45,504 nucleotides of DNA from Candidatus Limnocylindrus sp. (GTDB lineage: Bacteria > Chloroflexota > Limnocylindria > Limnocylindrales > Limnocylindraceae): positions 1-45,504 of the forward strand of contig JBBAWP010000004.1 of assembly GCA_040397155.1 (NCBI GenBank), given 5' to 3'. Made by a program: the position numbers and the translations under genes. The notes under the pieces are model-generated. The model was not told where the DNA came from and did not search any database. It was given only the letters and a program-made list of their open reading frames with translations. Shown one piece after another: positions 29,518 through 44,817 of the stretch (positions within the stretch are counted from its first letter, which is position 1; every line of letters begins with the position of its first letter).

Positions 29518-30653
29518 TATCTGCCCCCTCGGCGACCGTGTCGGTCGCGCTTCTTGGCCGAACGAATCGTGGCGGCCGCAGATGCGGCGCGGTCAAGATC
29601 CGTGCGGGATTGTGGTGCCCCTTCAACCACGTCGCCCGCCGGAGCGCTCTCCGGCATCGCCACGGGGAATCGCGGTGCATGGTTCACGGCGAAGGCCGGA
29701 GTCCACCCAAAGAGTGGGAAGAGTCCGCCGTAGCCGAGGATCAAATACTGCTGCGCCAACGAGAAGATCGTGGACGCAATCCAGTAGATAAAGAGTCCCG
29801 CCGGCAAGATGCCGCCGTACAGGATTGAGATGAGCGGCAGGATCACCAGTGTCTGGCTCTGCATTGCCGCTGACGGATCGCCCTTTGCCGCGCCGCCCTT
29901 TGGCAGCGTCATCCGCGTCTGCAACACCTGCAACAGTGCGCTACCGAGCGCGAGCGGGGAGATGCCGACTCCGAGAAGAACGAGTGGTGCCCATGGCTGC
30001 GAAACATCAAGCCCGCCAAGCCATCCCACTGTTGTGTCAAAACAGCGGACACCGTCTGCGAGACCGTTCACGCAGCCTGGATCCAAGACCTGGAATCCGA
30101 AGATGCTCAGCATGGCGCTTGGATCGCTCGTCTTAAGTCCTTGATCGATCACTGAATACATTGGGATGAGCACGATGAACTGAAGCAGGGTCGGCAGGCA
30201 GCCGCTCAGCGGATTGATGCCGCGCGTCTTGTACAGCTCCGCCTGCGCTTGCTGGATCTTCATCCGATCGCCCTTATAGCGACGCTTGATCTCTTCCACC
30301 TCTGGCGCGAGCAGCTGCGTGCGCTTCTGTGAAACAAGTTGGCGCCGGTACGGCGAAATCAACACGACGCGGATGACGATCGTGAGCAGGAGAATTGAGA
30401 TTCCGATATCTCCTGTCAGGTTGTCAAAGAAGACCAGGCCAATGAAGAGTGCTTGGAAGACTGGCGTAAACAACCAAGAGAGGAGGCTGAACGGATCAGC
30501 GCCTGGCGATGCTGGAACGAGAGGCGCTGGCGGAGATGGCGGAACAACGACTGAGGCAGCGTCACACGCACCAACAACAAGCGCGACGAGTGTCAGAAGG
30601 AGAACCGTTGGGAGCAGTTGACGCGCTCGGTTGATCATCGGACTGGATCCCAT
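29517..30653 (-). CDS. yidC: Membrane protein insertase YidC
   Basis: The 378-aa polytopic ORF contains QKRTQLLAPEVEEIKRRYKGDRMKIQQAQAELYKTRGINPLSGCLPTLLQ, the typical YidC/Oxa1 core. An alternative start at ATG 30638 would remove most of the overlap with yidD. Confidence 0.9.
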   Translation of the reverse strand: MGSSPMINRARQLLPTVLLLTLVALVVGACDAASVVVPPSPPAPLVPASPGADPFSLLSWLFTPVFQALFIGLVFFDNLTGDIGISILLLTIVIRVVLISPYRRQLVSQKRTQLLAPEVEEIKRRYKGDRMKIQQAQAELYKTRGINPLSGCLPTLLQFIVLIPMYSVIDQGLKTSDPSAMLSIFGFQVLDPGCVNGLADGVRCFDTTVGWLGGLDVSQPWAPLVLLGVGISPLALGSALLQVLQTRMTLPKGGAAKGDPSAAMQSQTLVILPLISILYGGILPAGLFIYWIASTIFSLAQQYLILGYGGLFPLFGWTPAFAVNHAPRFPVAMPESAPAGDVVEGAPQSRTDLDRAASAAATIRSAKKRDRHGRRGGR

Positions 30654-30841
30654 CCGCCGGCGCTGAGTGGGGAGCAGCGCGCAATTCGGCGCGCACCCAT
30701 CCAGCTCCCCTTAAGGACGCCGTACTTCATGATCGCCTCTTCCGTGTATCGAGAGCAGCTCGGCTCAAACCGGCAGCTTGATGGCAGCCATGCAAAGAGG
30801 ATTCGATAGAGATGGATGAAGGCAACGGCGAGTCGCTTCAC
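30635..30841 (-). CDS. yidD: Membrane protein insertion efficiency factor YidD
   Basis: The 68-aa ORF carries the family signature YRILFAWLPSSCRFEPSCSRYTEEAIMKYG. Confidence 0.9.
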   Translation of the reverse strand: MKRLAVAFIHLYRILFAWLPSSCRFEPSCSRYTEEAIMKYGVLKGSWMGARRIARCSPLSAGGWDPVR

Positions 30842-31185
30842 GCGCGTGCCTCGCTATTGGTGCCAGAGAGAAGTTTTGCGCGGCGGAGGCAATCGGTGAG
30901 TGCGGCGCGGAGCTGCTCGCTCGATGCAGTTGCGGCCGAAGCGCGCACGCCAATCAGAAGGTCTGTGCCAGGTACAACCGCTGGCGCCAGGTCTCGTGTG
31001 ATTGCCTTGAGCCGGCGGCGAATGCGGTTGCGCACCACTGCGCCGCCAACCTTCTTGCTTGCGGCAATTCCAATGCGCAGCGAGGGTACGGCGCGATCGC
31101 GCACAGCGAAGCGAACGCCGAGCAGTGGTGAGTTGACACCGGGCGCGGCGGCAAGAGCCGTAAAGTCAGCTGCGGTTCGAATCAT
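30838..31185 (-). CDS. rnpA: RNase P protein component
   Basis: The 115-aa basic ORF contains IAASKKVGGAVVRNRIRRRLK (RNR motif). It lies between rpmH and yidD. Confidence 0.85.
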   Translation of the reverse strand: MIRTAADFTALAAAPGVNSPLLGVRFAVRDRAVPSLRIGIAASKKVGGAVVRNRIRRRLKAITRDLAPAVVPGTDLLIGVRASAATASSEQLRAALTDCLRRAKLLSGTNSEARA

Positions 31186-31220
31186 GTCGAAACCTGCGGG
31201 GCGCGAGTGCGCCGGCCCGC

Positions 31221-31355
31221 TCAGACGGTGAGGCGCTTGCGGCCGCGTGCGCGGCGACGAGCCAAGACCTTGCGGCCCGACGTCGTCGACATGCGCTTAC
31301 GGAAACCGTGTTCGCGGAATCGCTGTCGCTTCTTTGGCTGGTGCGTTCGCTTCAT
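31221..31355 (-). CDS. rpmH: 50S ribosomal protein L34
   Basis: I translated this by hand because it is too short for the ORF track. It reads [44 protein letters not shown]. Confidence 0.95.
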
Positions 31356-31706
31356 GTTGATCGCTCCCGTCAATGTGGCCTTGGCGTCGCTCCGCCGTGC
31401 GGACCGGGTGCCAAGAGGGCTGCCTGGCCTAGGGCCGCGAGGTGGGCGGATCTAGGAAGGGAAGTATCGTCGGGGAGCCGCCAGGGTGTCAATTCAGGCA
31501 CGGTAATCCCTGCGCCGATGGCGCTACGGGGAGGCTGGCGGTAGCCCAGAGGCACTCCGCCCCTGGGTGTAACAATGCTCGCGCGACGCGTCGTACGGGT
31601 TGAGAAGTTGCTGCTATTCTCCGCGTCCCCCCAACAGGGTCCGGGCGGCCGCAACGCTGCCCCACTGACTCTCTGACGCGGGGAAAAGAGAGGGAGGCGC
31701 TGCGGC

Positions 31707-33137
31707 ATGGATCGACGACAGGTCTGGCGCGCCACTCTCGGAGAGCTAGAGATCAGCCTCTCCCAGGCGACCTTCGAAACCTGGTTCCGTCGAACCGCAC
31801 TCCTTCGCGTTGACGAACAGAGCAGCACTTTCACGCTCGGTGTTGCTTCTGGTTTTGCAAAGGATTGGATTGAGGAGCGCTACCGCTCACTCATCGCACA
31901 AACAATCGCAAAGATTGTTGGCTATAGCGTGACGCTCCAGGTAGAAGTTGTGAGCGAGGATGAGCTTGATGCGCAAGGCGCGCTCGCAGGGAAGAAGAGT
32001 GCGTCAACAGACACCGCATCACAGGTGCGCACGCACACACCTTCGAGCGATTCAGTTCGCGTTGTTGATGCGAGCGAGCCAGCGCGACCAACCAACCTGA
32101 ACGCGCGATACACATTCGCAACGTATGTCGTTGGTTCCGCGAGCCGGCTTGCACACGCTGCATCGCAGTCTGTCTCCGAGCGGCCAGGTGGCGCATACAA
32201 CCCGCTCTTCCTTTACGGCGGTACTGGTCTTGGGAAGACACACCTGCTTCACGCGATCGGAAACGCGGTGATGGAGCGTTCGCCAAAGCGACGCGTCCTT
32301 TACATCACTGGCGAAGCGTTCACCAATGAGTTTATTCTCGGCATCCAGCAGGGTGCGGCCGACGCGTTCCGTTCGCGCTTCAGGAAGATTGACGTGTTGC
32401 TGATCGACGACATCCAATTCATTGCGGACAAGGAGCGGACGCAGGAAGAGTTCTTCCACACATTCAACACCCTCCACTCCGCAGGGAAGCAGATCGTGAT
32501 CACTTCGGATCGCACACCAAAGGAAATCTCACTCCTTGAAGAGCGTCTTCGCTCTCGCTTTGAGTGGGGCTTGATTGCAGACATCTCTTCGCCTGATCTT
32601 GAGACGCGAATCGCCATTCTGCGCAGCAAGGTTGAAGAGAGCGGCGTGATCGTTGCAGATGATGTGTTGGAGCAGGTCGCCCGCCGCGTGCAGAGCAATG
32701 TGCGCGAACTTGAAGGGGCGCTCACCCGTCTGGTTGCGGTGGGCCGCCTCAGCGGCATGCCGGTCACGATGGAGCTCGCCGCACGGGTGTTGAGCGAGGC
32801 GGTCTATCCGAGCCCGAAGCGCATTCTTGAGCCGGAGCAGGTGGTTGCCGTTGTCGCCGAACACTACGGCGTGACCGTTGAGCAGCTGCGCGGCCCGAAG
32901 CGCGACCGTGAGATTGTGGTTCCTCGCCAGATCGCCGCCTACCTCTCGCGTGAGGAGACCGACGCGTCGCTCGTTCGTATCGGCGGTGCGCTCGGGGGGC
33001 GAGACCACTCCACGATCATCCACGCCTGCAGCAAGATCGAGCGCGAGATGAGCTACGACGCGGAGCTCCGCCGAGAGGTGGCCCTTCTGCGCGAGGCGCT
33101 CCTCCGCTACGGCCAGGGGGCTGCTGCCTCCGCATAA
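31707..33137 (+). CDS. dnaA: Chromosomal replication initiator DnaA
   Basis: Motifs are NPLFLYGGTGLGKTHLL (Walker A), LLIDDIQF, the sensor region SNVRELEGAL, and the C-terminal DNA-binding domain with RQIAAYLSRE and GRDHSTIIHA. Confidence 0.97.
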   Translation: MDRRQVWRATLGELEISLSQATFETWFRRTALLRVDEQSSTFTLGVASGFAKDWIEERYRSLIAQTIAKIVGYSVTLQVEVVSEDELDAQGALAGKKSASTDTASQVRTHTPSSDSVRVVDASEPARPTNLNARYTFATYVVGSASRLAHAASQSVSERPGGAYNPLFLYGGTGLGKTHLLHAIGNAVMERSPKRRVLYITGEAFTNEFILGIQQGAADAFRSRFRKIDVLLIDDIQFIADKERTQEEFFHTFNTLHSAGKQIVITSDRTPKEISLLEERLRSRFEWGLIADISSPDLETRIAILRSKVEESGVIVADDVLEQVARRVQSNVRELEGALTRLVAVGRLSGMPVTMELAARVLSEAVYPSPKRILEPEQVVAVVAEHYGVTVEQLRGPKRDREIVVPRQIAAYLSREETDASLVRIGGALGGRDHSTIIHACSKIEREMSYDAELRREVALLREALLRYGQGAAASA

Positions 33138-33438
33138 CCTGTGGATATCTGGTGGAGAAGTGGTGGAAACACCGCCTTCTCGCACGGGGGGCGTGAGCGC
33201 CTGAGGACACGATGTGGAGAACCGACCTGGGGTTCCCCCCAGCCTCTCCCGAGAAACGGTGAGGTTTACGCGCACCGGGGGTGCGTGGTTCACACTTCAG
33301 GGGAGGTTCCCCACGGTTCCTGGACGAGGGTTTACGCGTAGGCTCCACAGGTTCCACACTACGAATACGACGGTGACGGGTTTAAAGAGATAAGACACTA
33401 TTAGCAAGACGCTCAGAGGGGTATGTGGAGGAGTTGAA
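33138..33438. other. Candidate oriC (DnaA-box cluster plus AT-rich unwinding patch) in the dnaA-dnaN spacer
   Basis: DnaA-box-like 9-mers, compared with TTATCCACA/TGTGGATAA, are: TGTGGATAT at 33140-33148 (8/9), TGTGGAGAA at 33213-33221 (8/9), TGTGGAGGA at 33424-33432 (7/9), and tandem ggcTCCACA/ggtTCCACA at 33341-33358 in the opposite orientation. The only markedly AT-rich patch in this GC-rich neighbourhood, tttaaagagataagacactattagcaa, lies at 33381-33407. GGTTTACGCG occurs twice. The spacer is 300 nt and non-coding. Confidence 0.6.
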
Positions 33439-34554
33439 ATGAAGCTATCGGTGACTCAAGAGAACCTGGCGCGCGGCCTGGCGGTTGTCGGTCACGGTGT
33501 GGCCTCTCGAAACACGCTTCCGATCCTCTCGAACGTCTACCTCGGCACCGAGGACGGCGGACTCCGGCTCGTGGCAACCAACCTCGAGATCGCGGTGACC
33601 CATTGGGTTCCCGCCAGGATTGAAGAGAAGGGTGCAACAACGATCCCAGCACGCCTTCTCAGCGACGTGGTGAACGGGCTCCCGAACGAGAAGATTGATA
33701 TCTCGCTTCTCCCGGACGGCCGTGTTCACCTGAAGTGCGGTCGCAGCGCATCACACCTTCGCGCAACACCCGCCGACGACTTCCCTCAAGTCGGCGCCGC
33801 TGGCGAGCGCGTAACGGCGCGGATCTCACAGAAAGAGCTGCGCGCCGCACTCGACTCAACCGTGTTCGCCGCCGCAGGCGACGAAGCGCGGCCGATCCTC
33901 ACCGGCGTGCTCACAAGCTTCACCGGAGAGAAGGCAACATTTGCCGCTGCGGATAACTACCGCATCGCAGTCGCTGGTGCTGCGCTTGCAGAGGCGGCAC
34001 CAGAGACGAGCATCATCGTGCCTGCGCGTGCGTATGCCGAACTCCTTCGTCTGCTCTCAGATGTTGATGACCTTGTTGAGATAACACTGACACCGGCGAA
34101 GAACCAACTGCAGTTCAAGCTCGGCGACACCATGTTGGTCAGCCGACTTATTGATGGGCAATTCCCACCATTCCAGCAAGTGATCCCAACGTCCCACACC
34201 ACAAAGGTAACTATCGTGCGCGACGATTTCTTGCGCGCCGTTCGCCTTGCGCAAGTTGTGGCCGACGCGTCAGCGCACATCGTGCGATTCGCGATTACAC
34301 CTGAAGGCGGTGGAGCAATTGACATCACCGCCGCCGCAGATGTTGGCGATCATGCGGCACACGTTGAAGCAACGGTCGAAGGCGAAGGGACAACGATTGC
34401 GTTCAACGCGAAGTATCTCGTGGACGTGCTCTCCCGCGTTGAAGCAGACCAGTTCTCCCTGGAGCTCACTGGCCCGATCGCACCAGGGTTGCTTCGCCCG
34501 CTTGATGGGCGCGACTACCTCCATGTCGTGATGCCGGTGCGCACCCCCTCCTGA
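33439..34554 (+). CDS. dnaN: DNA polymerase III beta sliding clamp
   Basis: The 371-aa ORF has the N-terminus MKLSVTQENLARGL and the motif LPILSNVYL. It occupies the canonical position after dnaA. Confidence 0.95.
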   Translation: MKLSVTQENLARGLAVVGHGVASRNTLPILSNVYLGTEDGGLRLVATNLEIAVTHWVPARIEEKGATTIPARLLSDVVNGLPNEKIDISLLPDGRVHLKCGRSASHLRATPADDFPQVGAAGERVTARISQKELRAALDSTVFAAAGDEARPILTGVLTSFTGEKATFAAADNYRIAVAGAALAEAAPETSIIVPARAYAELLRLLSDVDDLVEITLTPAKNQLQFKLGDTMLVSRLIDGQFPPFQQVIPTSHTTKVTIVRDDFLRAVRLAQVVADASAHIVRFAITPEGGGAIDITAAADVGDHAAHVEATVEGEGTTIAFNAKYLVDVLSRVEADQFSLELTGPIAPGLLRPLDGRDYLHVVMPVRTPS

Positions 34555-34617
34555 TCATGCGGTGCCGCACACCGCGCGGCCCAGACGCTCGTCAACCGAT
34601 GAAGAGGAGTGGACAAA

Positions 34618-35778
34618 GTGATTGAGCGCGTGCGCCTCCAACAAATCCGAAGCTGGACCGCTGGAGAGATCCGTTTCTCCGCAGGCCCCCAGATCCTCTG
34701 GGGGGCGAACGGCGCTGGGAAGACCACCGCGATCGAAGCGCTGCTTGTTGCAGCCACCGGTCGCTCGCACCGTGCAAGCGCGCTCCGCGAACTCGTCCAA
34801 GAGGGGGCAAGCAGCGGTGCGTTCACCGTCACACTTCGAGACCCACGTGAGGCGCAGGACGATCCGCTTGCGGCAACCACACTCGCCGCAGAGATCGGCC
34901 GCTCGGAGCGCACCCGGTATCTCGTGAACGGCACCGCGCGAAGGAGCGAGACGCTCGGCGAGAAGCTCAAGATCGCCGCCTTTGTTCCGGAAGAGACAGG
35001 CCTCGTCGTCGGGGCCCCTTCCGTGCGTCGCGCCGCCCTAGACCGAATGGCAATCCAGTGGAAGACGGGCTACCGCGCTGCCCTCACCAGGTATGAACGC
35101 ACACTTAAGCAGCGCAACCGGCTCTTGAAGGATGCGCTTGAGAGCGACGGTGCTGAGCGACGGGCGATCAGCGCAGAGATGAAGCCGTGGACTGAACTCT
35201 TGATCAGTAGCGGCGCGGAGATTGTTGCGGCTCGCAACGAACTGCTGCGCGCACTCGCAGGCCCCCTCACAACCGCGCACCGCGAGGTCGCCCCTACAGA
35301 GGGCGATCTCACCGTCCACTATGTTTCGCGTGAAGCGCACCTCCTAGATGACGACGCGGACGCCGCCGCCATCCGCCTACGCAGATCGTTTGAGGAAACC
35401 GCGGAGAGCGAGGGTTATCAAGGACACACACTGGTTGGCCCACACCGCGATGACCTGACGTTTAAGGCGGATGGAAAAGATCTCGCGCCGATCGCATCGC
35501 GCGGACAACAGCGCAGCCTGCTTCTTGCGCTTCTTTTTGCGGAGATTGAGCTACTGACTACCGATCGCGGCGAGCCGCCTCTTCTTCTGCTCGACGATGC
35601 ATTCTCTGAGCTTGATCCGGAGCGACGCGATCATCTCGTGCAGCGCCTTACCGCACTCCCCCAGACCATCATCACCACCACGACGCTCGGCGATCTCGCT
35701 CCGCGGCTCGTCGCTGCCAGCGCATGCCAAGAAGTGGTTCGAGGTCCGCGCGGAAGTGAGGTGAAGCGTGAACGATAA
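34618..35778 (+). CDS. recF: DNA replication and repair protein RecF
   Basis: It has the Walker A motif GANGAGKTTAIEAL, the SMC-like signature SRGQQRSLLLAL and the Walker B motif LLLLDDAFSELD. I prefer GTG 34618, with gaggag 8-9 nt upstream, over the tracked GTG 34609. Confidence 0.9.
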   Translation: MIERVRLQQIRSWTAGEIRFSAGPQILWGANGAGKTTAIEALLVAATGRSHRASALRELVQEGASSGAFTVTLRDPREAQDDPLAATTLAAEIGRSERTRYLVNGTARRSETLGEKLKIAAFVPEETGLVVGAPSVRRAALDRMAIQWKTGYRAALTRYERTLKQRNRLLKDALESDGAERRAISAEMKPWTELLISSGAEIVAARNELLRALAGPLTTAHREVAPTEGDLTVHYVSREAHLLDDDADAAAIRLRRSFEETAESEGYQGHTLVGPHRDDLTFKADGKDLAPIASRGQQRSLLLALLFAEIELLTTDRGEPPLLLLDDAFSELDPERRDHLVQRLTALPQTIITTTTLGDLAPRLVAASACQEVVRGPRGSEVKRER

Positions 35779-36118
35779 GCGTCAACGTAAAAGGAAGCCG
35801 CAGAAGTTGAGCACACTAATTCCTGAAGCGGCGCGCGCGCTCGGCTTTCAAGAAGAGCTTGAACTTTCACAACGCGCTCGTGTCTTTCACGAGCTTCTCG
35901 TGCAGATCGCGCCGCACCTTGCGCCGCACTGCCGACTCACGGCGGGGAGTGAAGGGGGCCGACTTGCGATTGAAGTTGACGACCGCGCAACCGCGCAAGA
36001 GCTCCACCTACGTAGCGCCGAGATTGCCAGCGCTTATTCAAGCCACCCAGGCGGCGCGCGCGCAATCGGGCTAACCGTGCGCCTCGGACAGGGCAACGAC
36101 GATACCGAGCGACACTAG
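35768..36118 (+). CDS. DUF721-domain protein (DciA-like) following recF
   Basis: The 116-aa ORF has a basic N-terminus and overlaps the recF end by 11 nt. This is the same position as the DUF721/DciA gene in Actinobacteria. The pattern ...LVQIAPHLAPHCRLTAGSEGGRLAIEVDDRATAQELHLRSAEI fits the DUF721 profile as I remember it. Confidence 0.65.
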   Translation: MNDKRQRKRKPQKLSTLIPEAARALGFQEELELSQRARVFHELLVQIAPHLAPHCRLTAGSEGGRLAIEVDDRATAQELHLRSAEIASAYSSHPGGARAIGLTVRLGQGNDDTERH

Positions 36119-36134: not shown

Positions 36135-38606
36135 ATGAACGACAGCCTTCGAACAACGAACGCGCAACCAACCCTCCTGGTTGGCTCGGCGACGCTGGTC
36201 ACCGCGGGCGACCGCGCACTACTGCTGCGCATGCCGGCGAGCCCCACAACCGCACGCACGCTCGGTGCGCGCGCGATTCTACTCAACGCCCCAGGATCGA
36301 ACGCATCTCAACTCAAGGCGGCAGCCGAGCGCGCACTAAACCTTTTTGACCAAGGGGAAGGGGGTGCGGGTGAGCGTGCGCGCACAATCATCGTTGCGCT
36401 CCGCGAGCAGCTTGGCGAACAGAGCGAGGTCTGCATGGTCGGCCTCCTTCGTCGTGAAGCGTGGGCCGCATCAAGCGGAAACCTCACCGCCGTCGCCTCA
36501 CTCCTCCGTGAAAGCCGACACGTCACCGTCCTGCTCCCTGCTGGCGCTCCAGGCGCGTCAGCGGGAGCCGCGCAGCGACAAGGAGTTGTCACCGGACGCG
36601 TTGCGCTCGCAATTGGTGACCGGATCGCGTTAGCGTTCACCGAAGAGGAGGGGCGAGCGCTTTTGAAGCGCCGGCCAGGATCTGCAAGCGACGGCGCAGA
36701 GCTCGCACTCCTTCTTGCAAGCGAAGAGCCGACGCCACCAGCGCTGCGAAGCGCCTCGCAAACCAGCGACACCCTGTTGGCGATTCCGGCAGACAACATT
36801 GCGCAAGCCAAAGCACGCGCCCGCGCGCGATGGGAGGAGGGGAACGACGAGCGGAGTGAACTCATTGCCGCCGCCGTGCCGCCGAAGCCAGAGGCGGATC
36901 GCCGCCGCCCTGAACGCCCAACGGAGCCGTACGCCCCAATTGACCGAGCCGCCCAAGAGGTGCTCGCCGAGCGTCGAGGTGGCGGCGCGCGCGGCGGGGT
37001 GTCAACGCGTGGACCAGCAGCCCGCGTGGCTCAACCAAGCCGCGACGCAAGAAGCCGCGAAGCAATCCGCCGCGCTGCACGAGCACGCGCAGAACGCAGC
37101 CCTGGTGCTGAGCCAGAGATTGAGCGCTCTCGCGCTGAGCGTGGATCCACACCCCCCTCGCGGCTCCGCGTTGCGGCGAGACGACTCATCAGCGCAGCTG
37201 AGCGGCGCTTCCCGTGGGCTGCCTCGCGAGTGCCAGAACCAAGCCTAGGTATTGAACGCAAACGCCAGGCGTCACCAAAGCAGGCGATTGCTCGAAGTCG
37301 ACGGCGCAGCGCAAGCGTGCTGCTTGCAGCAATCCTCATTACCGCAGTTGGCGGGGTTGCAAGCGTCTATCTGAATCAAACGAATCCAACGCTTGATGCT
37401 GCAGCAAACGCGCGGGAGTCACTCGCCGAAGCAGCACGGGCCGTTGACGAGGCACTTAACCCAGTCACCAATCTGCTTGCAAGCGACCCCGACCGCGCGC
37501 GAACACTACTCGTCAGCGCAACTGAGAAACTCGTGACTGCCGAAGCGGGTGGCGCCCCGATGTCAGAGATCAACGCACTTCGCGAACGAATGGGACCGCC
37601 GCTCGACAAGCTCTTCCTTCTCACTCGCGCAACAGTGTTTGATGTGTTTGACTTCACTTCCGCAACAGTGCCCATCAAGATCACCGCAATCACCCAAGGG
37701 CCGGACGGATACAGCTACATCCTGGATGATTTCTCGGGAGCGGTATACCGAGTGGATCCGGCGGCGCAACCAAACCCGCGCGCAACCGTGATCTACCAGC
37801 CCGGATATGAACTGTTTGGGAGTACCACCGGCCGCGCGCAAACCATCAGCGCGTCAGGGCCAGACATTCTTATCTTCGACGCCTCGTCCAATCTTTGGCG
37901 CTGGCGACCAGCCGACTCAAGCGGGAAGGGAACACTCGTGAAGCTTCGCGTGCGGGACGGCGAGCTCTGGGGGAGCGACGTAACGATCATTTCCGGATTC
38001 GCTGCCGATGAAGGGACAGGGCTGTATCGAATGTATGTGGTTGACCCCTCAGCGCGACAAATCTTGCGATACACGCCCGCCCCTGACGGGACAGGCTATC
38101 CGGCCCCGCCGACTGGATATCTGATTAACCCAACGTCGCTCGCCAGTGTGGACGCGATGGCAATCGACGGCGATCTCTACCTTGCGCAAGACGGCGCGGT
38201 ACGAAGGTATGTGGGCGGCGCCGTGGACGAGTGGGTTCCAGCGGACCCTGGCGACAGCGTGATCCGAAGCACTCCAGAGATCCGACTCATCCTCTCCGCA
38301 GGTGCGAGCCGCACCGGCGTGCTCTACGGGTGGGATGTTCGTAATGAGCGAATACTTGCGTACAGCAAGGCCTCCTCTGGGAGCGTGCTCGCGCAGTATC
38401 AACTTGTAGCGAGCGACGGTGTCGTCTCCAGCATTGTCGGCGGCTACATAGCGCTGGCTCGAGATGGCGGAGCGCCGACGTTTATCTGGGCTGAAGAGGG
38501 GCGCATTCGAGGTGCGGTGCTCGGCGCAGCGGTGACCCCTGGCGCCACTCCAACTCCAGCCGTCACCGCCGCTCCCGTGATCGAACTGCCGAGCATTCAG
38601 CCGTAA
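36135..38606 (+). CDS. Hypothetical 823-aa single-pass membrane protein: cytoplasmic N-domain, Arg/Glu/Ala-rich linker, TM helix, repeat-rich extracytoplasmic domain
   Basis: It is a long uninterrupted ORF. One predicted TM helix, SVLLAAILITAVGGVASVYL, lies at about aa 393-412 (37311-37370). The C-terminal ~300 aa show about six repeats of the strand pattern h-h-D..(G)..hYRh (YSYILDDFSGAVYRVD, ILIFDASSNLWRWRP, LYRMYVVDPSARQILRYTP, LYLAQDGAVRRYV, VLYGWDVRNERILAYS, TFIWAEEGRIRG). No family was recognised. Confidence 0.7.
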   Translation: MNDSLRTTNAQPTLLVGSATLVTAGDRALLLRMPASPTTARTLGARAILLNAPGSNASQLKAAAERALNLFDQGEGGAGERARTIIVALREQLGEQSEVCMVGLLRREAWAASSGNLTAVASLLRESRHVTVLLPAGAPGASAGAAQRQGVVTGRVALAIGDRIALAFTEEEGRALLKRRPGSASDGAELALLLASEEPTPPALRSASQTSDTLLAIPADNIAQAKARARARWEEGNDERSELIAAAVPPKPEADRRRPERPTEPYAPIDRAAQEVLAERRGGGARGGVSTRGPAARVAQPSRDARSREAIRRAARARAERSPGAEPEIERSRAERGSTPPSRLRVAARRLISAAERRFPWAASRVPEPSLGIERKRQASPKQAIARSRRRSASVLLAAILITAVGGVASVYLNQTNPTLDAAANARESLAEAARAVDEALNPVTNLLASDPDRARTLLVSATEKLVTAEAGGAPMSEINALRERMGPPLDKLFLLTRATVFDVFDFTSATVPIKITAITQGPDGYSYILDDFSGAVYRVDPAAQPNPRATVIYQPGYELFGSTTGRAQTISASGPDILIFDASSNLWRWRPADSSGKGTLVKLRVRDGELWGSDVTIISGFAADEGTGLYRMYVVDPSARQILRYTPAPDGTGYPAPPTGYLINPTSLASVDAMAIDGDLYLAQDGAVRRYVGGAVDEWVPADPGDSVIRSTPEIRLILSAGASRTGVLYGWDVRNERILAYSKASSGSVLAQYQLVASDGVVSSIVGGYIALARDGGAPTFIWAEEGRIRGAVLGAAVTPGATPTPAVTAAPVIELPSIQP

Positions 38607-39169: not shown

Positions 39170-39916
39170 CTAGAGGAGCCGGACCCCTCGCGCGAGTGCA
39201 TTCGCGCGGCGGAACCAGAGCGCACCACGAAGCGACCAGAAGTCACGCACCGCCGCAAACACCACGGAGGGCCGAGCGCCGCTGGCAGATCCGGCAACGC
39301 GCGGGAAGTGCGGAACGCCAACCTCAACCATCTGCACGCCACGCGCCCGTAACTTGATAAGCAACTCTGCGGAAAAGAATGCTCCGCTTGATGCAACGGC
39401 GATGCCGTGCAGCGTGGCACGAGGGAAGAGCTTCATCGCGCAGTCCACATCGCGCACCGGAAGGCCAAACCAGAAGCGATTCGCGAGGCGATACACCGCG
39501 GCGTAGATCTTCCGTAGCGCAGGGTCGGCACGCTTGATGCGGTAACCGAGTGCAACCGTTTCGTGATTCGGCACCGCTGAGATGAGCGCTGCAAGATCTG
39601 TAACGCGGAACTGCCGATCCCCATCGGTGAAGGCAATCCATTCGTAGCGCGCGCCACCAAACCCGGAGCGGAGCGCTCCGCCATACCCGCGATTTATGTC
39701 GTGTCGAATCACGCGAACAACGTTCGGGTGGGCCGCTTCAAGCCGAGCTGCGACGGCAGGTGTTGCATCGGTAGAGCCGTCATCAACAAGGATCACCTCA
39801 TACCGCTCAGCGAGCGTAGGGAGTGCGCTCAGCGCCTCAGCAACAAGCGCGTCAAGGTTCTCCGCCTCGTTGTGACACGGAAAGAAGAGGGAGAGCTCGT
39901 TAATCGGTATCTGCAC
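39170..39916 (-). CDS. Glycosyltransferase family 2, polyprenyl-phosphate sugar synthase type (Ppm1/DPM1/GtrB-like)
   Basis: The 248-aa ORF has PCHNEAENL, ILVDDGSTD, RGYGGAL and FTDGDRQF motifs, the GT2 DxD-type core. It is soluble and short like Dol-P/polyprenol-P sugar synthases. It is divergent from the GT-C gene. Confidence 0.8.
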   Translation of the reverse strand: MQIPINELSLFFPCHNEAENLDALVAEALSALPTLAERYEVILVDDGSTDATPAVAARLEAAHPNVVRVIRHDINRGYGGALRSGFGGARYEWIAFTDGDRQFRVTDLAALISAVPNHETVALGYRIKRADPALRKIYAAVYRLANRFWFGLPVRDVDCAMKLFPRATLHGIAVASSGAFFSAELLIKLRARGVQMVEVGVPHFPRVAGSASGARPSVVFAAVRDFWSLRGALWFRRANALARGVRLL

Positions 39917-39944
39917 CTGCCCCCTCCACGGCTACACTCACCCC

Positions 39945-42900
39945 ATGAGCACTGCGCTGATCGTCGTCTTCGCACTTCTGTTGCGCATGATCATCGCATA
40001 CGTGTTCCTTCCGGCGAACGCTGGGTTCACCGCAGACCTCGAAGCATTTCGCTTTTGGGCGGCAGACCTTGGTGCGAACGGTCCGCTTGGCGCATACACA
40101 CGCGGCTACTTTCTTGATTATCTCCCTGGCTATCTCTGGATCCTCTGGCCGCTCGGCGCACTCAGCGGAGCGCTCACAGGATCGTTTGATCCTGGCGCGC
40201 TGATCAAGCTTCCAGGGATCCTTGCTGACGGCCTACTCATCGTTGCCACGGTTCGGTTGGCGAGTGAGCTCGGTGCATCAACGCGCGCGCAGCGCGTGGT
40301 CGCCCTCCTCCTTGCGTTCACACCGATCACGTGGCTGAACTCTGCAGTCTGGGGGCAGGTCGACGCCGTTGGAACGAGCGTGTTGGTCTTTGCAGTCACA
40401 GAGCTAATCAAAGGGCGCACCGTCCGCGCCGCTGCACTCGCTGCACTGGCTGCCGTGATCAAGCCGCAGTTCGGAATCCTCATCCCCCTGATTGCGGTGA
40501 TTGCAATCGTCCGCGCGCGTCGCAGCGGCGATGTTTGGTCACTCCCACTCGTTGCCCTCACCGGCACGGCGGTAGTCTCCGTTGCGGCACTTCCATTTGG
40601 CCTAACCGTGATTGACGTGATCCAGAGAGTTGGCGAGGCGGCGGCAACCTACCCATACTTGAGCGTGAACGCGTGGAACCTCTGGGCGCTCGCGGATAGT
40701 GGCGGGACAGGCATCGTCCTGAACGGAGGCTGGGGGAGCGACACCGCTCCTCTCTTTGGCTTCGGCCCACCAGCACTCTTTATCGGCACACTGTTGCTCC
40801 TTGTGGCGATCGCCGCGGCAGGGTGGGCGGCACGACACGACGAGCGCACCAGAACGGTCGCCGCCCTCGCCCTGATCGCGATCGCCTTCTTCGTCCTCCC
40901 AACGCGCGTCCATGAGCGCTACCTCTTCCCCGCAGTTCCGCTCACCCTTGCGCTCGCCGCGGCGCTCCCGCGCTGGCGTCCGACCGCCGCCGTAACCGCG
41001 CTGGTGTTGATTGCCAACACATGGGGGGTACTCACGCTTGCGTACCTCCAAAACCCAGGAGTCCCCGACCTTGGACCAGCTACCGACGCACTCCAAACCC
41101 CAGCCGCAATCATCACGGCAGCCTTTGCTGCCACGGCAGCGCTCTGCGCCGCGGGCTATCAACTTCTCCGGCTACCAACTGGCGAATCAAGGGTGGTGCG
41201 ACGAACGCCAGCGCGCACGCGCGAAGCAGACGAACACGTGCAAACAATCGCTGCGCCGCGAGCGCGCCTCAACCGGATCGACCTTTGGATGGTGGTCGTC
41301 ATTGCGGTTACCGCACTCTCACTTCGCGGGTGGCGCGTGGGTGAGCCAACGCGATTCCACTTTGACGAGGTCTATCACGTGCGCACCGCAACAGAGTTCA
41401 TGCAGCACTGGCGGTACGGCGACCCACATCCGATCTACGAGTACACCCACCCGCACCTTGCGAAGTATGCGATCGCAGCAGGCCTTGAGATCTTTGGTGC
41501 CCCACGCGTAGAAGGAGGGAGTAACTACGGCGCTCCGATCCTTGCGATCGCGTCACGACCAGAAGGCGCTGTAGGCGCGCCGCGAATCTGGGTCGCAACA
41601 GCAACCGGCATTGATGTGATCAACCCTGCAACACGTGCGGTGATTGGAACGATCAACGAACCGAGTGCCCGTGCACTGAGTGTGGCGGACGACGGATCAC
41701 TATGGGCTCTTTCCAGAAGCGGTGACCTGTTGCACGCGGTTGGCGACACTGCTGATGGGGGGAACAGCGCCCCGTTCACTCGATGGAGCACGAACGTTGC
41801 TGACGTACGCGCGGTGCGTGGTCTTGGTGACGTTGCATTGATCGCCACAGCGAACGAGGTGATCCGTGTTGAGCGTGGTGCAATCACCTCGCGAGCCACC
41901 GTTGCTGGTGTCCGTCAGATTGAGATCGTTCGCGTTGACGAAGCGAGCCACGTGGTGGTTGCAGGGAGTGCTGGCTTTACGCTTCTGCGCGCCGATGATC
42001 TTGGCGGCGCACAGATCACCACCGTGACCGGGGGAGTGAGCGCACTCGGAGGAGTGGACTGGTTTGACGAACCTCGTGTCTACGCCGCGGGACCCGACAG
42101 CATCTCTGTGTACACGCTGCGCGCGAATACACCAGCCGTAAGCGTGGCGAGGATCAGCATCGCAGATGCATCGTTGATCATTGTGAACCACGCAACGCGG
42201 ATTGTGCACGCGGTAGCACCGACTCAAACAGCGAGTGGCGCCGCCGCGCTCTGGAGCATTGAGCCAAACGGAAACGCCTACTTTGCGGACACGGAGCTTC
42301 GCAATCCAGCGGTGAGTGGTGCTGAGCCGCTTATGAGCGACAACGTGATAGGTGCCGTGATTGATGGATCAGCCGAACTGCCGGACGGAGGGCGAGGAGA
42401 GCTGATCACCGCGTGGCCAAACGGCGAGATGGTGCAGGTTGCTGTTGGCGACCTCTCTGCAGGGTGGCGTTGGCCCGGAGTGATTGCTGGAGCGATCGCT
42501 GCCGCACTTCTTGCACTCCTCGCGCGGCTCCTCACGGAGCGCCGCGACGTTGCCGCGCTCACGGGCCTCCTCGCCCTGTTGGACGGCGCAGGATTCGTGC
42601 AGAGCCGCATCGGGATGAACGACGTCTACTTGTTTGCGGCGCTCTTGGCCGCCGCCTGCGCCTTTGTCGCTTGGCTACAAGGTCGCGCGCGCGGGGTTGC
42701 GGGGGGGAGCCTCCTCCTCCTTGTTACTGGCGTAGCCCTCGGCCTCGCACTCGCGAGCAAGTGGGTGGCCCTTTACGGGATTGCAGCGCTCGGGCTGCTT
42801 TGGCTCGCGCGCAGTGCATGGGGGAGACTCGCCGCCCTGGCGGGTCTCATTGGGATCAGTGCGATCCTCCTCCCCCCCGCACTCTCTACCTCGGCGGAGG

Positions 42901-44087
42901 GGACGCGACTTCCGAATCTTCCCTTCCTTGGGGTTGCAGTGCTTGTGATCGTCGGCACGGTCGCAGTAGTCCGCCGAGCTGGCGGCATGAACCGTAAGGG
43001 TCTCGATCTGCAGCGCGTCGGCGACGTCGTCTCTACAGGCGCGTCGGCACTCCTTGTTGGGGCAACCCTCGTTGCACTCCCGCTTGCGGTCTATCTGATC
43101 AGCTATCTCCCATGGGCGGCGCTGGGAAACCAGATCGTTGAAGGCTGGCCGCTCGGAAACGACGGGAGAACACTCGCCGACCTCACCACTTCTATGTATC
43201 AGTACCACGACACGCTCCGCGTGGCACACGCCGCAAGCTCGCCGTGGTGGGCGTGGCCGTTTGACTTGAAACCGGTCTGGTTCTTCCAGGAAAGCTTTGC
43301 GGCGGCTGGCGGGTGGAGCGGCGCAATCTACAACGGCGGAAATGTTGCGTCGCGCATTCTCGGCCTCGCCGGCGCCGCGTGGCTTGCACGTCAGGCGTGG
43401 ATTCAGAAGAGCTGGGGCCTTGCGAGCGCCGCCATCATCTTTTTTGCACTTTGGCTCCCATGGGCGCGCGTTGACCGCGCCGCGTTTCAGTACCACTACT
43501 TCCCGTCTTCACAAATTGCACTGATCGCACTCGCACTTCTTCTCGCCGACTTGCGAAACGGAGCGACACGCGCGGTTCGACTGGCGCAAGGCGGGCTCGC
43601 CGCACTGATCCTTGCCGCGCCACTGTTTTGGACTACAACGCCTCTCTTGTGTGCCGCCGCAGGAGTTCTTGATGTCTATTCAGAGAGCCAGGTCTGCCTC
43701 TCTTCTGGGCTCGCAACACCAGGGCCAGTGATCGGCGCGGTGCTTCTGATCCCTGCCGCATATGCGGCGTGGTCACTTCGTCATATCCGCGATCCTCGTC
43801 GGCTGTTCCGCTGGTCGCTCGGTGCGATCGCGGTCGTTGCACTGATTTGGTATCCGAACTGGTCAGCACTTCCACTTCCAACAGGAGTGCACAACGTCTA
43901 TCAAGGTGTTTTCCCAACATGGACCTGGTCGTTCCAATTTGGGGTCACACTTAAGAAACCAGTTGACGTGCCACTCGTGAGCGGAGCAACACTCCTCTTC
44001 GCAGCGGCGCTCGCGGCGGTTGCGGTTCTTACGTATGCGCTATTCGAGTACGCGCGGCGAAGAGAACTCCACAAGGATCGCTCGTAG
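39945..44087 (+). CDS. 1380-aa polytopic membrane protein: N-terminal GT-C-like module fused to a PMT (GT39)-like protein O-mannosyltransferase module with a ~320-aa soluble insertion
   Basis: N-module (aa 1-~400) motifs are YFLDYLPGYLW, WGQVDA, IKPQFG and TRVHERYLFP, which resemble Gpi18/ALG6-ALG8-like GT-C families. C-module motifs are FHFDEVYHVRTA (DE motif at 41364-41369), YTHPHLAKY, SRIGMNDVY, and a C-terminal AFQYHYFPS of the PMT_4TMC type. An insert at aa ~520-840 (41502-42464) has repeated beta-strand patterns. The reading frame is continuous with no stop. Confidence 0.75.
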   Translation: MSTALIVVFALLLRMIIAYVFLPANAGFTADLEAFRFWAADLGANGPLGAYTRGYFLDYLPGYLWILWPLGALSGALTGSFDPGALIKLPGILADGLLIVATVRLASELGASTRAQRVVALLLAFTPITWLNSAVWGQVDAVGTSVLVFAVTELIKGRTVRAAALAALAAVIKPQFGILIPLIAVIAIVRARRSGDVWSLPLVALTGTAVVSVAALPFGLTVIDVIQRVGEAAATYPYLSVNAWNLWALADSGGTGIVLNGGWGSDTAPLFGFGPPALFIGTLLLLVAIAAAGWAARHDERTRTVAALALIAIAFFVLPTRVHERYLFPAVPLTLALAAALPRWRPTAAVTALVLIANTWGVLTLAYLQNPGVPDLGPATDALQTPAAIITAAFAATAALCAAGYQLLRLPTGESRVVRRTPARTREADEHVQTIAAPRARLNRIDLWMVVVIAVTALSLRGWRVGEPTRFHFDEVYHVRTATEFMQHWRYGDPHPIYEYTHPHLAKYAIAAGLEIFGAPRVEGGSNYGAPILAIASRPEGAVGAPRIWVATATGIDVINPATRAVIGTINEPSARALSVADDGSLWALSRSGDLLHAVGDTADGGNSAPFTRWSTNVADVRAVRGLGDVALIATANEVIRVERGAITSRATVAGVRQIEIVRVDEASHVVVAGSAGFTLLRADDLGGAQITTVTGGVSALGGVDWFDEPRVYAAGPDSISVYTLRANTPAVSVARISIADASLIIVNHATRIVHAVAPTQTASGAAALWSIEPNGNAYFADTELRNPAVSGAEPLMSDNVIGAVIDGSAELPDGGRGELITAWPNGEMVQVAVGDLSAGWRWPGVIAGAIAAALLALLARLLTERRDVAALTGLLALLDGAGFVQSRIGMNDVYLFAALLAAACAFVAWLQGRARGVAGGSLLLLVTGVALGLALASKWVALYGIAALGLLWLARSAWGRLAALAGLIGISAILLPPALSTSAEGTRLPNLPFLGVAVLVIVGTVAVVRRAGGMNRKGLDLQRVGDVVSTGASALLVGATLVALPLAVYLISYLPWAALGNQIVEGWPLGNDGRTLADLTTSMYQYHDTLRVAHAASSPWWAWPFDLKPVWFFQESFAAAGGWSGAIYNGGNVASRILGLAGAAWLARQAWIQKSWGLASAAIIFFALWLPWARVDRAAFQYHYFPSSQIALIALALLLADLRNGATRAVRLAQGGLAALILAAPLFWTTTPLLCAAAGVLDVYSESQVCLSSGLATPGPVIGAVLLIPAAYAAWSLRHIRDPRRLFRWSLGAIAVVALIWYPNWSALPLPTGVHNVYQGVFPTWTWSFQFGVTLKKPVDVPLVSGATLLFAAALAAVAVLTYALFEYARRRELHKDRS

Positions 44088-44378
44088 CGGAACCCCGTCG
44101 GTCGCAAGGAGGCGCTCAACCGCCGCGGGAAGTGCAATCGCTTCGCCAGATGCAACGCGCTGACGTTCGTCGGCAAGGGCGAGCCATCCACCGCCCTCAA
44201 TCACAATCAGCAGCGCGTCATTCGGTGAACGAAGTGGTCCGAGCGCTGCACGCTCGCTCAAGGTGATCTCTGTGATGTGCGCCGTTGTGCCGGCGTGCAG
44301 GAGCGCGCTCTCTACGCCTGTTGCCCCCGAACCGCGATCTGGTCGACGCTGTCCTGGTCCGAAGCGGCGGATCTCCAC
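44040..44378 (-). CDS. Cupin-domain protein (small, single domain)
   Basis: The 112-aa ORF contains ...GPLRSPNDALLIVIEGGGWLALADERQRVASGEAIALPAAV..., a cupin_2-like two-motif pattern. Its 3' end overlaps the 3' end of the convergent 1380-aa gene by 48 nt. Confidence 0.5.
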   Translation of the reverse strand: MEIRRFGPGQRRPDRGSGATGVESALLHAGTTAHITEITLSERAALGPLRSPNDALLIVIEGGGWLALADERQRVASGEAIALPAAVERLLATDGVPLRAILVEFSSPRVLE

Positions 44379-44388
44379 CGCGTGACGC

Positions 44389-44817
44389 TCAGCGCTTCTT
44401 GCTGCCGCCGCGGCGATTTGGTCGCTTGAGAGTTGCCTCCACTCCGTCGCTCACCTGGCGCCGTGTGCGCAACATCGCCTCATGCGCCGCTTCAGCGGCG
44501 AGCTGTGGCGGGAAGCGATTCACAACCGTGTCGCGGAGTAGGTAGAGGCCAATTGCCGTCGTAACGATCGGAAAGATTCCGTACCACTGGAAGGCGGCGT
44601 AGATCAGGTTGAGTCCGAAGGTGCTCACGCCAATCCAGAGGAGATACTCCCACTCGTTGCCGAGCACTCCTCTTCCGTTCGCTCCGCGCGTCGACCAGAC
44701 GTAGGCGACGATGGTGAAGATAAAGAGCAGGAGGTTCACCGCCCAGAATGGGGTGTAGAAGGTGCCGAGTCGCGCGTTCAGCGCGACGAAGAGATACTCC
44801 CAAGGCCACTGCGCCAT
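44389..44817 (-). CDS. Hypothetical membrane protein (about 3 TM helices, basic C-terminal tail)
   Basis: The 142-aa ORF has hydrophobic segments FWAVNLLLFIFTIVAYVW, YLLWIGVSTFGLNLIYAAF and IFPIVTTAIGLYLL. It has a plausible ATG start. No family was recognised. Confidence 0.5.
   Translation of the reverse strand: MAQWPWEYLFVALNARLGTFYTPFWAVNLLLFIFTIVAYVWSTRGANGRGVLGNEWEYLLWIGVSTFGLNLIYAAFQWYGIFPIVTTAIGLYLLRDTVVNRFPPQLAAEAAHEAMLRTRRQVSDGVEATLKRPNRRGGSKKR

Follow-up and report, generated by a model that had tools for sequence, protein, structure and literature searches.

A single open reading frame (ORF) near the end of a 45,504-nucleotide stretch of DNA from Candidatus Limnocylindrus sp. (contig JBBAWP010000004.1; the whole stretch is called the window below) encodes a fusion of two membrane glycosyltransferase modules of the GT-C type, an architecture that is real and is found throughout the class Limnocylindria of the Chloroflexota. 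The fusion ORF (39945..44087, plus strand) runs uninterrupted from an ATG start codon through 1380 amino acids to its stop codon. Its N-terminal module resembles the ALG6 and PimE enzymes, and the remainder is a module of the GT39, or protein O-mannosyltransferase (PMT), type, whose first extracytoplasmic loop (EL1) holds an insert that is confidently modelled as a seven-bladed beta-propeller. A gene for a 248-amino acid GT2 glycosyltransferase without transmembrane (TM) helices (39170..39916, minus strand) diverges from the fusion gene, the two start codons being separated by a spacer of 28 bp (39917..39944). The fusion is a previously uncharacterised architectural variant of the known GT-C/PMT systems; a literature search returned nothing on the fusion gene and nothing on phosphatidylinositol mannosides (PIMs) in Chloroflexota. 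An initial annotation, made from the sequence, had proposed the single ORF, its 28-bp distance from the GT2 gene and the presence of two modules in one ORF. The first two are exact in the sequence, and Pfam, AlphaFold2 (AF2) and Foldseek agree on the third; the motifs on which the annotation drew (DYLPGY, WGQxD, KPQ, HERY, FDEVYH and HPHLAKY) all occur in the translation where it had placed them.

A long ORF of this kind might be an artefact of assembly, or of a frameshift, that joins two ordinary neighbouring genes. A search with the whole protein returned 914 relatives at E<1e-5, and the best 110 of these, which share 53-97% identity with it, represent the same fusion; about 100 are full-length protein clusters, drawn from ENA, JGI, NCBI and Logan assemblies, so that homologues with the same fusion, for which the initial annotation had asked, are plentiful. 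A scan in which each species was represented by one genome confirmed 486 stretches, and the best 80 among them were inspected; they are all the same gene, most of them spanning residues ~1-1380 in independent assemblies, as do nearly all of those that are not cut by a contig end. These 80 come from Limnocylindria or other Chloroflexota metagenome-assembled genomes, except for one that is labelled as gammaproteobacterial and one that is labelled only “bacterium”. The former contig (RGWK01000092.1, “Gammaproteobacteria bacterium”) carries the fusion at 56% identity together with the downstream genes of the freshwater clade described below, and is probably a mis-binned Limnocylindria contig. Where the sources of homologues are named, they are Candidatus Limnocylindrus or Aquidulcis, and the database names of the proteins themselves are generic (“phospholipid carrier-dependent glycosyltransferase”, “Gpi18-like mannosyltransferase”), which conceals the dual architecture. 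Since many full-length homologues are present in independent assemblies, the ORF is not a product of chance or an artefact, and the fusion is kept at full length across the class. Errors at this gene do occur, in the opposite direction: in one distant and very GC-rich relative (locus L086, 2338-8877) the N-terminal module lies just upstream of the PMT part and in a different frame, neither frame being interrupted at the junction, and the gene call begins the PMT part at an internal methionine, misses the N-terminal module and places minus-strand ORFs there instead. This locus is an example of a fusion hidden by a frameshift or by mis-annotation. Given the uninterrupted fusion in so many clusters and genomes, the artefact explanation is effectively refuted.

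The conservation of the fusion is distributed unevenly along its length. In the distant relatives, which are taken here as those with less than ~70% overall identity, identity amounts to 41-77% in the TM modules, 62-90% in the segment bearing the DE motif of the PMT module, 25-51% in the insert and 6-32% in the linker that joins the modules, and the N-terminal module is as conserved as the PMT core. The residues that are called invariant below are those of an alignment of 19 sequences which extends down to 40% identity.

The N-terminal module (39945..41174, plus strand, aa 1-410) is recognised as an ALG6/PimE-like GT-C module from its AF2 model, from Foldseek and from its invariant residues. 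Its motifs lie at aa 58-63 (DYLPGY), 136-140 (WGQVD), 173-175 (KPQ) and 323-326 (HERY). When Pfam is applied to aa 1-420, it yields sub-threshold matches to four GT-C families, namely GT87 (23.2 bits), Alg6_Alg8 (19.1 bits), GT22 and PIG-U. At E<0.01, 12 of 15 homologues match Alg6_Alg8 (best 1.7e-8) and 12 of 15 match GT87 (best 2.1e-8). Judged by these profiles, the module appears to lie between GT87 and GT57 (ALG6/ALG8) and to be a clear member of neither; the likeness to Gpi18 suggested by the initial annotation was not reproduced by Pfam, in which these two are the nearest families. A profile search against the sequences of the PDB found no solved GT-C enzyme, the sole TM match being a chance one to a mechanosensitive channel. 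The AF2 model of the module (pLDDT 80, pTM 0.83) has yeast ALG6 as its best Foldseek match (6snh, E=1.7e-5, TM-score 0.67/0.62), followed by AglB, GPI-MT-I (9wno), PimE (9dm5), ALG3, PIG-U, ArnT and STT3; the probability is 1.00 for ALG6, AglB, GPI-MT-I, PimE and ALG3, and Emb structures appear as weak matches. The outcome that the module might have no GT-C fold or hits, which the initial annotation had named as fatal to its proposal of an N-terminal GT-C module, was thus examined, and GT-C fold matches were obtained, the model superposing on ALG6, GPI-MT-I, PimE, ALG3 and PIG-U.

The invariant residues of this module are D31 and D58 in its EL1, D140, K173 and H323-E-R-Y, and D58 is in the loop between the two EL1 helices. 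In PimE the catalytic residue is D58 and the phosphate ligands are K195 and H322 (PMC12041525), which D58, K173 and H323 of the module would parallel, the correspondence being a positional one. A fusion across GT-C classes, with ALG6 and PimE in GT-C_B and PMT in GT-C_A, was considered and set aside, because ALG6 and PimE are placed in GT-C_A (PMC12041525). The N-terminal module was never found alone in the loci examined. It is followed by the inter-module linker (41175..41267, plus strand, aa 411-441), which is Arg-rich and poorly conserved. The loop that contains the linker (aa 406-444, 39 aa) has 9 K/R and 4 D/E, the pLDDT falls below 50 over aa 413-440, and the linker is probably cytoplasmic.

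The PMT module begins with its TM1 and the first part of EL1 (41268..41504, aa 442-520; Pfam PMT profile positions 2-61) and resumes after the insert with a core that comprises the TM2-TM8 region, R888-x4-D893 and K939 (42459..43169, aa 839-1075), an EL4-type loop without a MIR domain that leads into the PMT_4TMC region, with the motifs HAASSPWWAWP and DRAAFQYHY (43170..43694, aa 1076-1250), and a C-terminal extension in which two extra hydrophobic helices flank an invariant loop (43695..44084, aa 1251-1380), all on the plus strand. The Pfam PMT family (PF02366) is matched in two pieces, profile positions 2-61 at aa ~452-518 and 85-212 at aa 841-970, with a score of 54.8 bits against a cutoff of 22.7 and E=1.3e-14 for the second piece. 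PMT_4TMC (PF16192) is matched at aa 1079-1239, marginally with the whole protein (32.9 bits against a cutoff of 32.4) and at 38.4 bits with the segment alone. Both families being above threshold, the PMT/GT39-like module with a PMT_4TMC-like C-terminus that had been proposed is borne out. In addition, aa 847-956 align with residues 143-251 of yeast Pmt1 (6p25), from TM2 onward. The hydropathy profile of aa 442-1380 has ~13 hydrophobic segments, which may be read as an eleven-TM core plus the two-helix extension. No Pfam family covers the extension (aa 1251-1380), whose invariant loop consists of Y1303-P-N, L1309-P-L-P, N1317-x-Y-Q-G and F1330-Q-F.

The motifs FDEVYH (aa 473-478) and HPHLAKY (aa 502-508, an amphipathic helix) lie in the most conserved stretch of the fusion (aa 442-520, 62-99% identity). 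The invariant residues here are D474, E475, H502, P503, H504 and K507; in the core they are R888, D893 (R888-IGMN-D893) and K939, and in the EL4/PMT_4TMC region H1095, S1099, P1100, W1101, W1102, R1178, Y1183 and H1184. In the PMT of Mycobacterium tuberculosis, D74 of the DE motif in EL1 and D176 of the Rx4-6D motif in EL2 are essential, and the acceptor groove is formed by EL1, the C-terminal part of EL4 and EL5 (PMC12331936). Both essential features are kept in the fusion: the DE-motif Asp that precedes the first EL1 helix corresponds to D474-E475, and the Rx4-6D motif to R888-x4-D893. The EL4 motifs SPWWxWP and FxYHY are likewise invariant in the relatives. Pfam matched no MIR domain in the fusion, and the loop equivalent to EL4 (aa 1062-1155) is 94 aa long. 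By its profile matches, the module is assigned to the GT39/PMT family and is not an orthologue of a characterised bacterial Pmt.

The presence of two GT-C folds does not of itself imply two active sites, since one module could be a degenerate scaffold or substrate-binding subunit, as PIG-U is in the GPI transamidase. PIG-U has a GT-C-like fold and no known transferase activity, and the N-terminal module matches it weakly in both Pfam and Foldseek (8imx_U, 7w72_U). We nevertheless consider a single catalytic module to be quite improbable, because in both modules the residues expected to act in catalysis or to bind phosphate do not vary down to 40% identity (D58, D140, K173 and H323-E-R; D474-E475, R888 and D893), and because the N-terminal module is conserved to the same degree as the PMT core.

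The insert (41505..42458, plus strand, aa 521-838) corresponds to the insertion of ~320 aa that the initial annotation had suggested to be a seven-bladed propeller in an unusual position, and each of these points is upheld. No segment of aa 465-841 is hydrophobic enough for a TM helix, and the insert therefore lies in a single loop; as there is no TM helix between TM1 and the helix that aligns with TM2 of Pmt1, it is on the same, extracytoplasmic side of the membrane as the DE motif. With 26 K/R and 41 D/E the insert is net acidic, and the linker is basic. The AF2 model of aa 505-850, built from 24 homologues, is confident (pLDDT 87.1, pTM 0.87) and is all-beta with ~28 strands. The best 50 Foldseek matches are almost all seven-bladed WD40 propellers, among them Gbeta, RACK1, PLRG1 and TLE1, with TM-scores of 0.65-0.69 at ~10% sequence identity, and the insert is accordingly modelled as a seven-bladed beta-propeller. 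At the level of sequence, a profile of the insert finds the periplasmic propellers of the Bacteroides hybrid two-component systems (HTCS; 4a2l, E=1.8e-10). No Pfam family is above threshold in any of the 24 homologues, the sub-threshold matches being DUF5074 in 7 of the 24 (best 1.1e-4) and Reg_prop in 1 of the 24. The insert, which might have turned out to be a known accessory domain, is thus classed by these searches as an unclassified propeller and not as a known PMT accessory domain.

An exhaustive search of 1.84 billion representatives with the insert gave 66 clusters at E<1e-30, mostly proteins of 1300-1830 aa in which the domain is located at ~600-1090. Shorter proteins of 800-1200 aa (P0124, P0155, P0165, P0183 and P0193) were considered as standalone PMT-plus-propeller enzymes; they are N-terminally truncated calls that begin inside or after the PMT TM1, one of them lies at a contig edge, in the one internal case (L086) the N-terminal module is present just upstream in its other frame, and their standalone status was rejected. 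Wherever it could be checked, a propeller-bearing PMT is accompanied by the N-terminal module. A word-indexed homologue search with the insert profile returned one protein only, a truncated and frameshifted fragment of the same family, and is uninformative, Ala/Gly-rich words having probably swamped its pre-filter. The propeller has a conserved patch (H755, E773-P-N-G-N777, F780, D782 and D807), which speaks for a functional surface rather than a simple spacer. Eukaryotic PMTs carry their MIR domain in EL4 and bacterial PMTs are without MIR (PMC12331936); since bacterial PMTs have neither domain and the eukaryotic one is in EL4, the position of the propeller in EL1 of a PMT is new.

The product of the divergent gene is a soluble GT-A enzyme of family GT2 (PF00535, E=5.8e-25) with DDGS and DGD motifs in its translation. 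Among solved structures its nearest relatives are ArnC (9hwj, E=3.5e-13, over aa 4-209) and the dolichol-P-mannose synthase of Pyrococcus (5mlz, E=3.2e-11, aa 7-224). Over most of its length the best NCBIfam models are ArnC, dolichyl-P hexose transferase and PpgS, all matched far below their equivalog cutoffs; MftF has the highest score and spans aa 7-130 only. Its near-full-length likeness to ArnC and the Pyrococcus enzyme, together with its place upstream of the fusion in all informative loci (see below), supports the earlier identification as a polyprenyl-phosphate sugar synthase, and it is probably a polyprenyl-phosphate hexose synthase that makes the donor. ArnC, DPMS and Ppm1 act by transferring a sugar from a nucleotide sugar to polyprenyl phosphate at the cytoplasmic face of the membrane. 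A scan of the locus for sigma-70-like promoters found none, which says little for this phylum, and a terminator scan gave terminator-like matches inside the coding region only.

With moderate confidence, we read the locus as encoding the conserved core of a pathway in which glycosylation takes place outside the cytoplasm and draws on a lipid-linked sugar donor. The combination of a GT2 synthase, a flippase and a GT-C enzyme is an established three-component scheme (PMC11127046), and we infer the catalytic roles of the GT2 enzyme and of both cores from homology, fold and motifs. On this reading, the GT2 enzyme, soluble and membrane-associated, would load polyprenyl phosphate at the cytoplasmic face with a hexose (most probably mannose) taken from a nucleotide sugar, and the lipid-linked sugar would be flipped to the outer face by a protein for which no gene was identified. 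The fusion would then use the flipped donor twice, at two GT-C cores outside the membrane. At the PMT core, with D474 of the DE motif in EL1 as the catalytic residue and R888-x4-D893 in EL2, a first sugar would be placed on Ser/Thr of exported proteins; at the N-terminal module, where D58 in EL1 would act as the base and K173 and H323 would bind the phosphate, further sugar would be added to that glycan, to a glycan on a lipid anchor, or to both. In M. tuberculosis, an O-mannose chain begun by PMT can be lengthened by PimE, and EL1 forms one wall of the PMT acceptor groove (PMC12331936). The propeller, which would face outward because it closely follows the catalytic DE motif within EL1, probably captures or positions the acceptor. 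The Arg-rich linker, if cytoplasmic, would put both active sites on the same side of the membrane, and a basic linker with an acidic EL1 fits a cytoplasmic linker and two outside active sites. The fusion would keep the initiating and the extending activity at 1:1 on one pool of donor.

The neighbourhood of the gene was surveyed by tblastn in 84 related loci. Freshwater-type loci are those with at least 50% identity; they include Limnocylindrus and Aquidulcis and are arranged as the window is, and the other loci are mostly from soil. Upstream counts refer to the 64 loci whose upstream flank measures 4 kb or more, and downstream counts to those in which 7 kb or more is available downstream. The GT2 gene is upstream of the fusion, on the opposite strand, in 64/64 informative loci, comprising 19/19 freshwater-type loci, where it is always within 200 bp, and 45/45 others. 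In the soil loci it is ~3.2 kb from the fusion, and the intervening genes are on the GT2 strand: a TMEM260-like GT-C gene (38/45; 0/19 in freshwater-type loci) and a gene for a putative membrane glycosyltransferase of ~458 aa (41/45; 0/19). In locus L005 (5984-8943, minus strand), for example, the former encodes 520 aa (PF11028, E=1.5e-18) and the latter matches the LA_3751/3752 family weakly. The GT2 gene is the last gene of this operon, its start being overlapped by 4 bp by the TMEM260-like gene. Up to four GT-C-type modules thus occur together in soil clusters.

The proximity of the GT2 gene could owe nothing to function and reflect the rigid gene order close to the replication origin, where recF, DciA, a gene for a protein of ~800 aa and a BFN nuclease gene are as syntenic as GT2 is. 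In the soil loci, however, the extra GT-C genes separate GT2 from the fusion and lie on the same strand as GT2, and their overlapping stop and start codons imply that GT2 is co-transcribed with GT-C enzymes; moreover, the closest solved relatives of the GT2 enzyme are polyprenyl-P-sugar synthases, the class that GT-C enzymes require. We therefore regard the absence of a functional tie between GT2 and the fusion as improbable.

Downstream of the fusion the two groups of loci differ as well. In 38-40 of the 41 non-freshwater loci, L003-L005 among them, the fusion gene is followed by an operon resembling those for phosphatidylinositol (PI) and PIM synthesis; in the soil relatives, which carry a larger version of the gene, it stands between this operon and the GT2/TMEM260-like one. 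The downstream operon holds genes for a GT4 glycosyltransferase, a PHP phosphatase, two acyltransferases, Ino1 (inositol-3-phosphate synthase) and a CDP-alcohol transferase, and it reaches from about +0.2 kb to +8.6 kb (in most cases to +6.5 kb) past the fusion. Both acyltransferases have PIM acyltransferase as their best match (137 and 98 bits), and the CDP-alcohol transferase best matches archaetidylinositol- and phosphatidylinositol-phosphate (PIP) synthases, all of these assignments being below equivalog thresholds. The PHP phosphatase is a candidate for the bacterial PIP phosphatase. No PI/PIM genes are found in the 45-kb window or, within 10 kb, in the 15 freshwater-clade loci with sufficient flank (0/15). 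Because GT2 and the fusion are kept in freshwater and soil loci alike and the additional glycosyltransferase and PI/PIM-like genes are not, these two genes form the conserved minimum. The ancestral or expanded state is a large envelope-glycoconjugate cluster resembling the mycobacterial toolkit of Ppm1, PMT, PimE, PimA, PatA and PI synthase. The term “self-contained”, which the initial annotation had applied to the GT2-fusion pair, is consequently too strong, no flippase having been found and the pair being the retained core of such a larger cluster.

These soil operons bear on an alternative in which no protein is glycosylated at all, both modules building a lipid-anchored or wall glycan, such as a PI-anchored lipomannan-like one, with the PMT-like module directed to glycan or lipid and the propeller acting as a carbohydrate-binding domain that holds the chain. 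We judge this to be doubtful, though it is the weightiest of the alternatives considered. It gains from the near-constant presence of the PI/PIM-like genes in the non-freshwater loci, which mirrors the mycobacterial PimA/PatA set (PMC12041525), and from the report that PI is a major lipid of cultured Chloroflexota, which also have unidentified glycolipids and cell-wall mannose (PMC12453558). The best solved sequence relatives of the propeller, the HTCS propellers, are moreover glycan-sensing, and the structural relatives of the N-terminal module (ALG6, GPI-MT-I, PimE and ALG3) all use lipid-linked glycan acceptors. Against it, the fusion pairs PF02366 with PF16192, and to our knowledge every characterised enzyme with this pairing is a protein O-mannosyltransferase; the EL4 motifs of the peptide groove are conserved; the freshwater clade keeps GT2 and the fusion with no PI/PIM genes close by; and the PI/PIM assignments themselves are sub-threshold.

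Several observations weigh against the proposed pathway of protein O-glycosylation and have to be set beside it. Since the relatives of the N-terminal module use lipid-linked glycans and a PI/PIM operon adjoins the fusion in soil loci, the acceptor could be a glycolipid. ALG6, the best structural match of the N-terminal module, is a glucosyltransferase. None of the enzymes is an orthologue of a characterised one: the PMT module scores 27.1 bits against a cutoff of 800 for the actinobacterial Pmt equivalog (NF058602), the fusion scores 23.2-23.3 bits for GT87 and 18.7-19.1 bits for Alg6_Alg8 against a gathering score of 25, and the best NCBIfam scores of the GT2 enzyme are 42-60 bits against cutoffs of 280-529, so that its sugar specificity is not fixed by them. 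The alignments behind the AF2 models are shallow, with 15 sequences for the N-terminal module and 24 for the insert. The evidence from gene neighbourhood is weakened because DciA and BFN, which are plainly unrelated, are equally syntenic near the origin. Finally, a flippase of the GtrA, SMR or MATE type was sought among the neighbours and none was recognisable.

The system is best placed by comparison with those that are already known. Like the actinobacterial set of Ppm1 (GT2), Pmt Rv1002c (GT39) and PimE (GT87), it pairs a GT2 synthase with a PMT-type GT-C enzyme; it shares with actinobacterial Pmt the PF02366 and PF16192 domains, the DE motif in EL1, Rx4D in EL2 and the lack of MIR, and with PimE and ALG6 the EL1 Asp and the Lys/His phosphate ligands of the N-terminal module, and its soil relatives add PatA-like, PIP-synthase-like, Ino1 and GT4 genes nearby, as in the actinobacterial PIM network. 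It differs from this set in that its two GT-C enzymes form a single polypeptide, which also has a propeller of 320 aa in EL1 and an extension of two helices at its C-terminus, in having a host from the Chloroflexota and not the Actinomycetota, and in its great distance from the Pmt equivalog, sugar and acceptor being putative here. Eukaryotic PMT1/PMT2 and POMT1/2 (GT39) have the same catalytic fold and motifs and also place a soluble beta-rich domain on the non-cytoplasmic side, but theirs is a MIR beta-trefoil in EL4, whereas the fusion has its propeller in EL1, a short EL4 and a second GT-C module. ALG6/ALG8 (GT57) and PimE (GT87) are like the N-terminal module in fold, in the VHERY motif and in the EL1 Asp; the fusion remains below the gathering scores of both Pfam families and has no sequence-level match to a solved GT-C enzyme.

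The GtrA/GtrB/Gtr*, CsbB/GtcA/YfhO and GT136 systems follow the same logic, with a GT2 synthase beside a GT-C enzyme that uses the flipped donor, and some three-component GT-C members carry extra extracytoplasmic binding domains (PMC11127046). Unlike these systems, the present locus has no recognisable flippase gene, a GT2 enzyme without the TM helices of GtrB and a GT-C partner that is a double enzyme. In size the fusion recalls the mycobacterial EmbA/B/C and AftD proteins, very large polytopic GT-C enzymes whose soluble periplasmic domains bind the acceptor glycan; these have one GT-C core with C-terminal carbohydrate-binding modules, and the fusion has two cores with a propeller inside EL1. 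The putative role of the propeller may be likened to that of the EL4 MIR domain of eukaryotic PMTs and of the carbohydrate-binding modules of other large GT-C enzymes.

The window (GC content ~61%) represents the region of the chromosomal origin, with jag, yidC, a gap of ~1 kb, dnaA, dnaN, recF and DciA at 28603-36118 and parAB, gyrBA and secA further left; the gap (30654-31706) may contain oriC. The gene for the protein of ~800 aa, which has 823 aa in the window (36135-38606, plus strand), is flanked by DciA and the BFN nuclease gene in 60 of the 61 related loci whose flanks are long enough. This protein, for which a single TM helix is predicted near aa 395-415, consists of an N-terminal half rich in Arg, Ala and Pro and a beta-rich C-terminal half that ends in a Pro/Thr/Ala-rich tail (VTPGATPTPAVTAAPV), and it has no relative in Pfam, NCBIfam or the PDB. 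The tail resembles actinobacterial O-mannosylation sites, and it is pure speculation that the protein could be an acceptor. Downstream, the 3' end of the fusion overlaps by 48 bp a weak cupin ORF of 111 aa (44040-44378, minus strand), which is followed by a gene for a three-helix membrane protein of 141 aa (44389-44817, minus strand) with no family match even at E up to 10, both being conserved in the freshwater clade only. The 141-aa protein was considered as a flippase, and nothing supports this. A MraY/WecA-type polyprenyl-phosphate sugar-1-phosphate transferase of 345 aa (Glycos_transf_4; 799-1839, minus strand), encoded ~38 kb away, also draws on polyprenyl phosphate and has no evident connection with the fusion locus.

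GT-C enzymes are normally single-core proteins that act in series as separate polypeptides. A conserved fusion of an initiating (PMT) and an extending (ALG6/PimE) core would show that initiation and extension can be coupled physically in one protein, and it would be a compact model for the hand-over of substrate between GT-C sites. How bacterial PMTs recognise their acceptors without a MIR domain is left open in PMC12331936, and a propeller in EL1, beside the catalytic Asp, would be a new answer to that question. More tentatively, Limnocylindria may possess an actinobacteria-like economy of polyprenyl-P-mannose, with protein O-mannosylation, PI-anchored PIM or lipomannan glycolipids in soil members, and, at its centre, a hitherto undescribed kind of enzyme with two active GT-C cores, whose propeller would hand the acceptor from the initiating to the extending site. 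The occurrence of PI/PIM-like and PMT-like genes at one locus in Chloroflexota suggests that envelope chemistry of the Actinomycetota type is older or more widespread in Terrabacteria. Limnocylindria are uncultured bacteria that abound in lakes and soils, and the locus bears on the chemistry of their surface.

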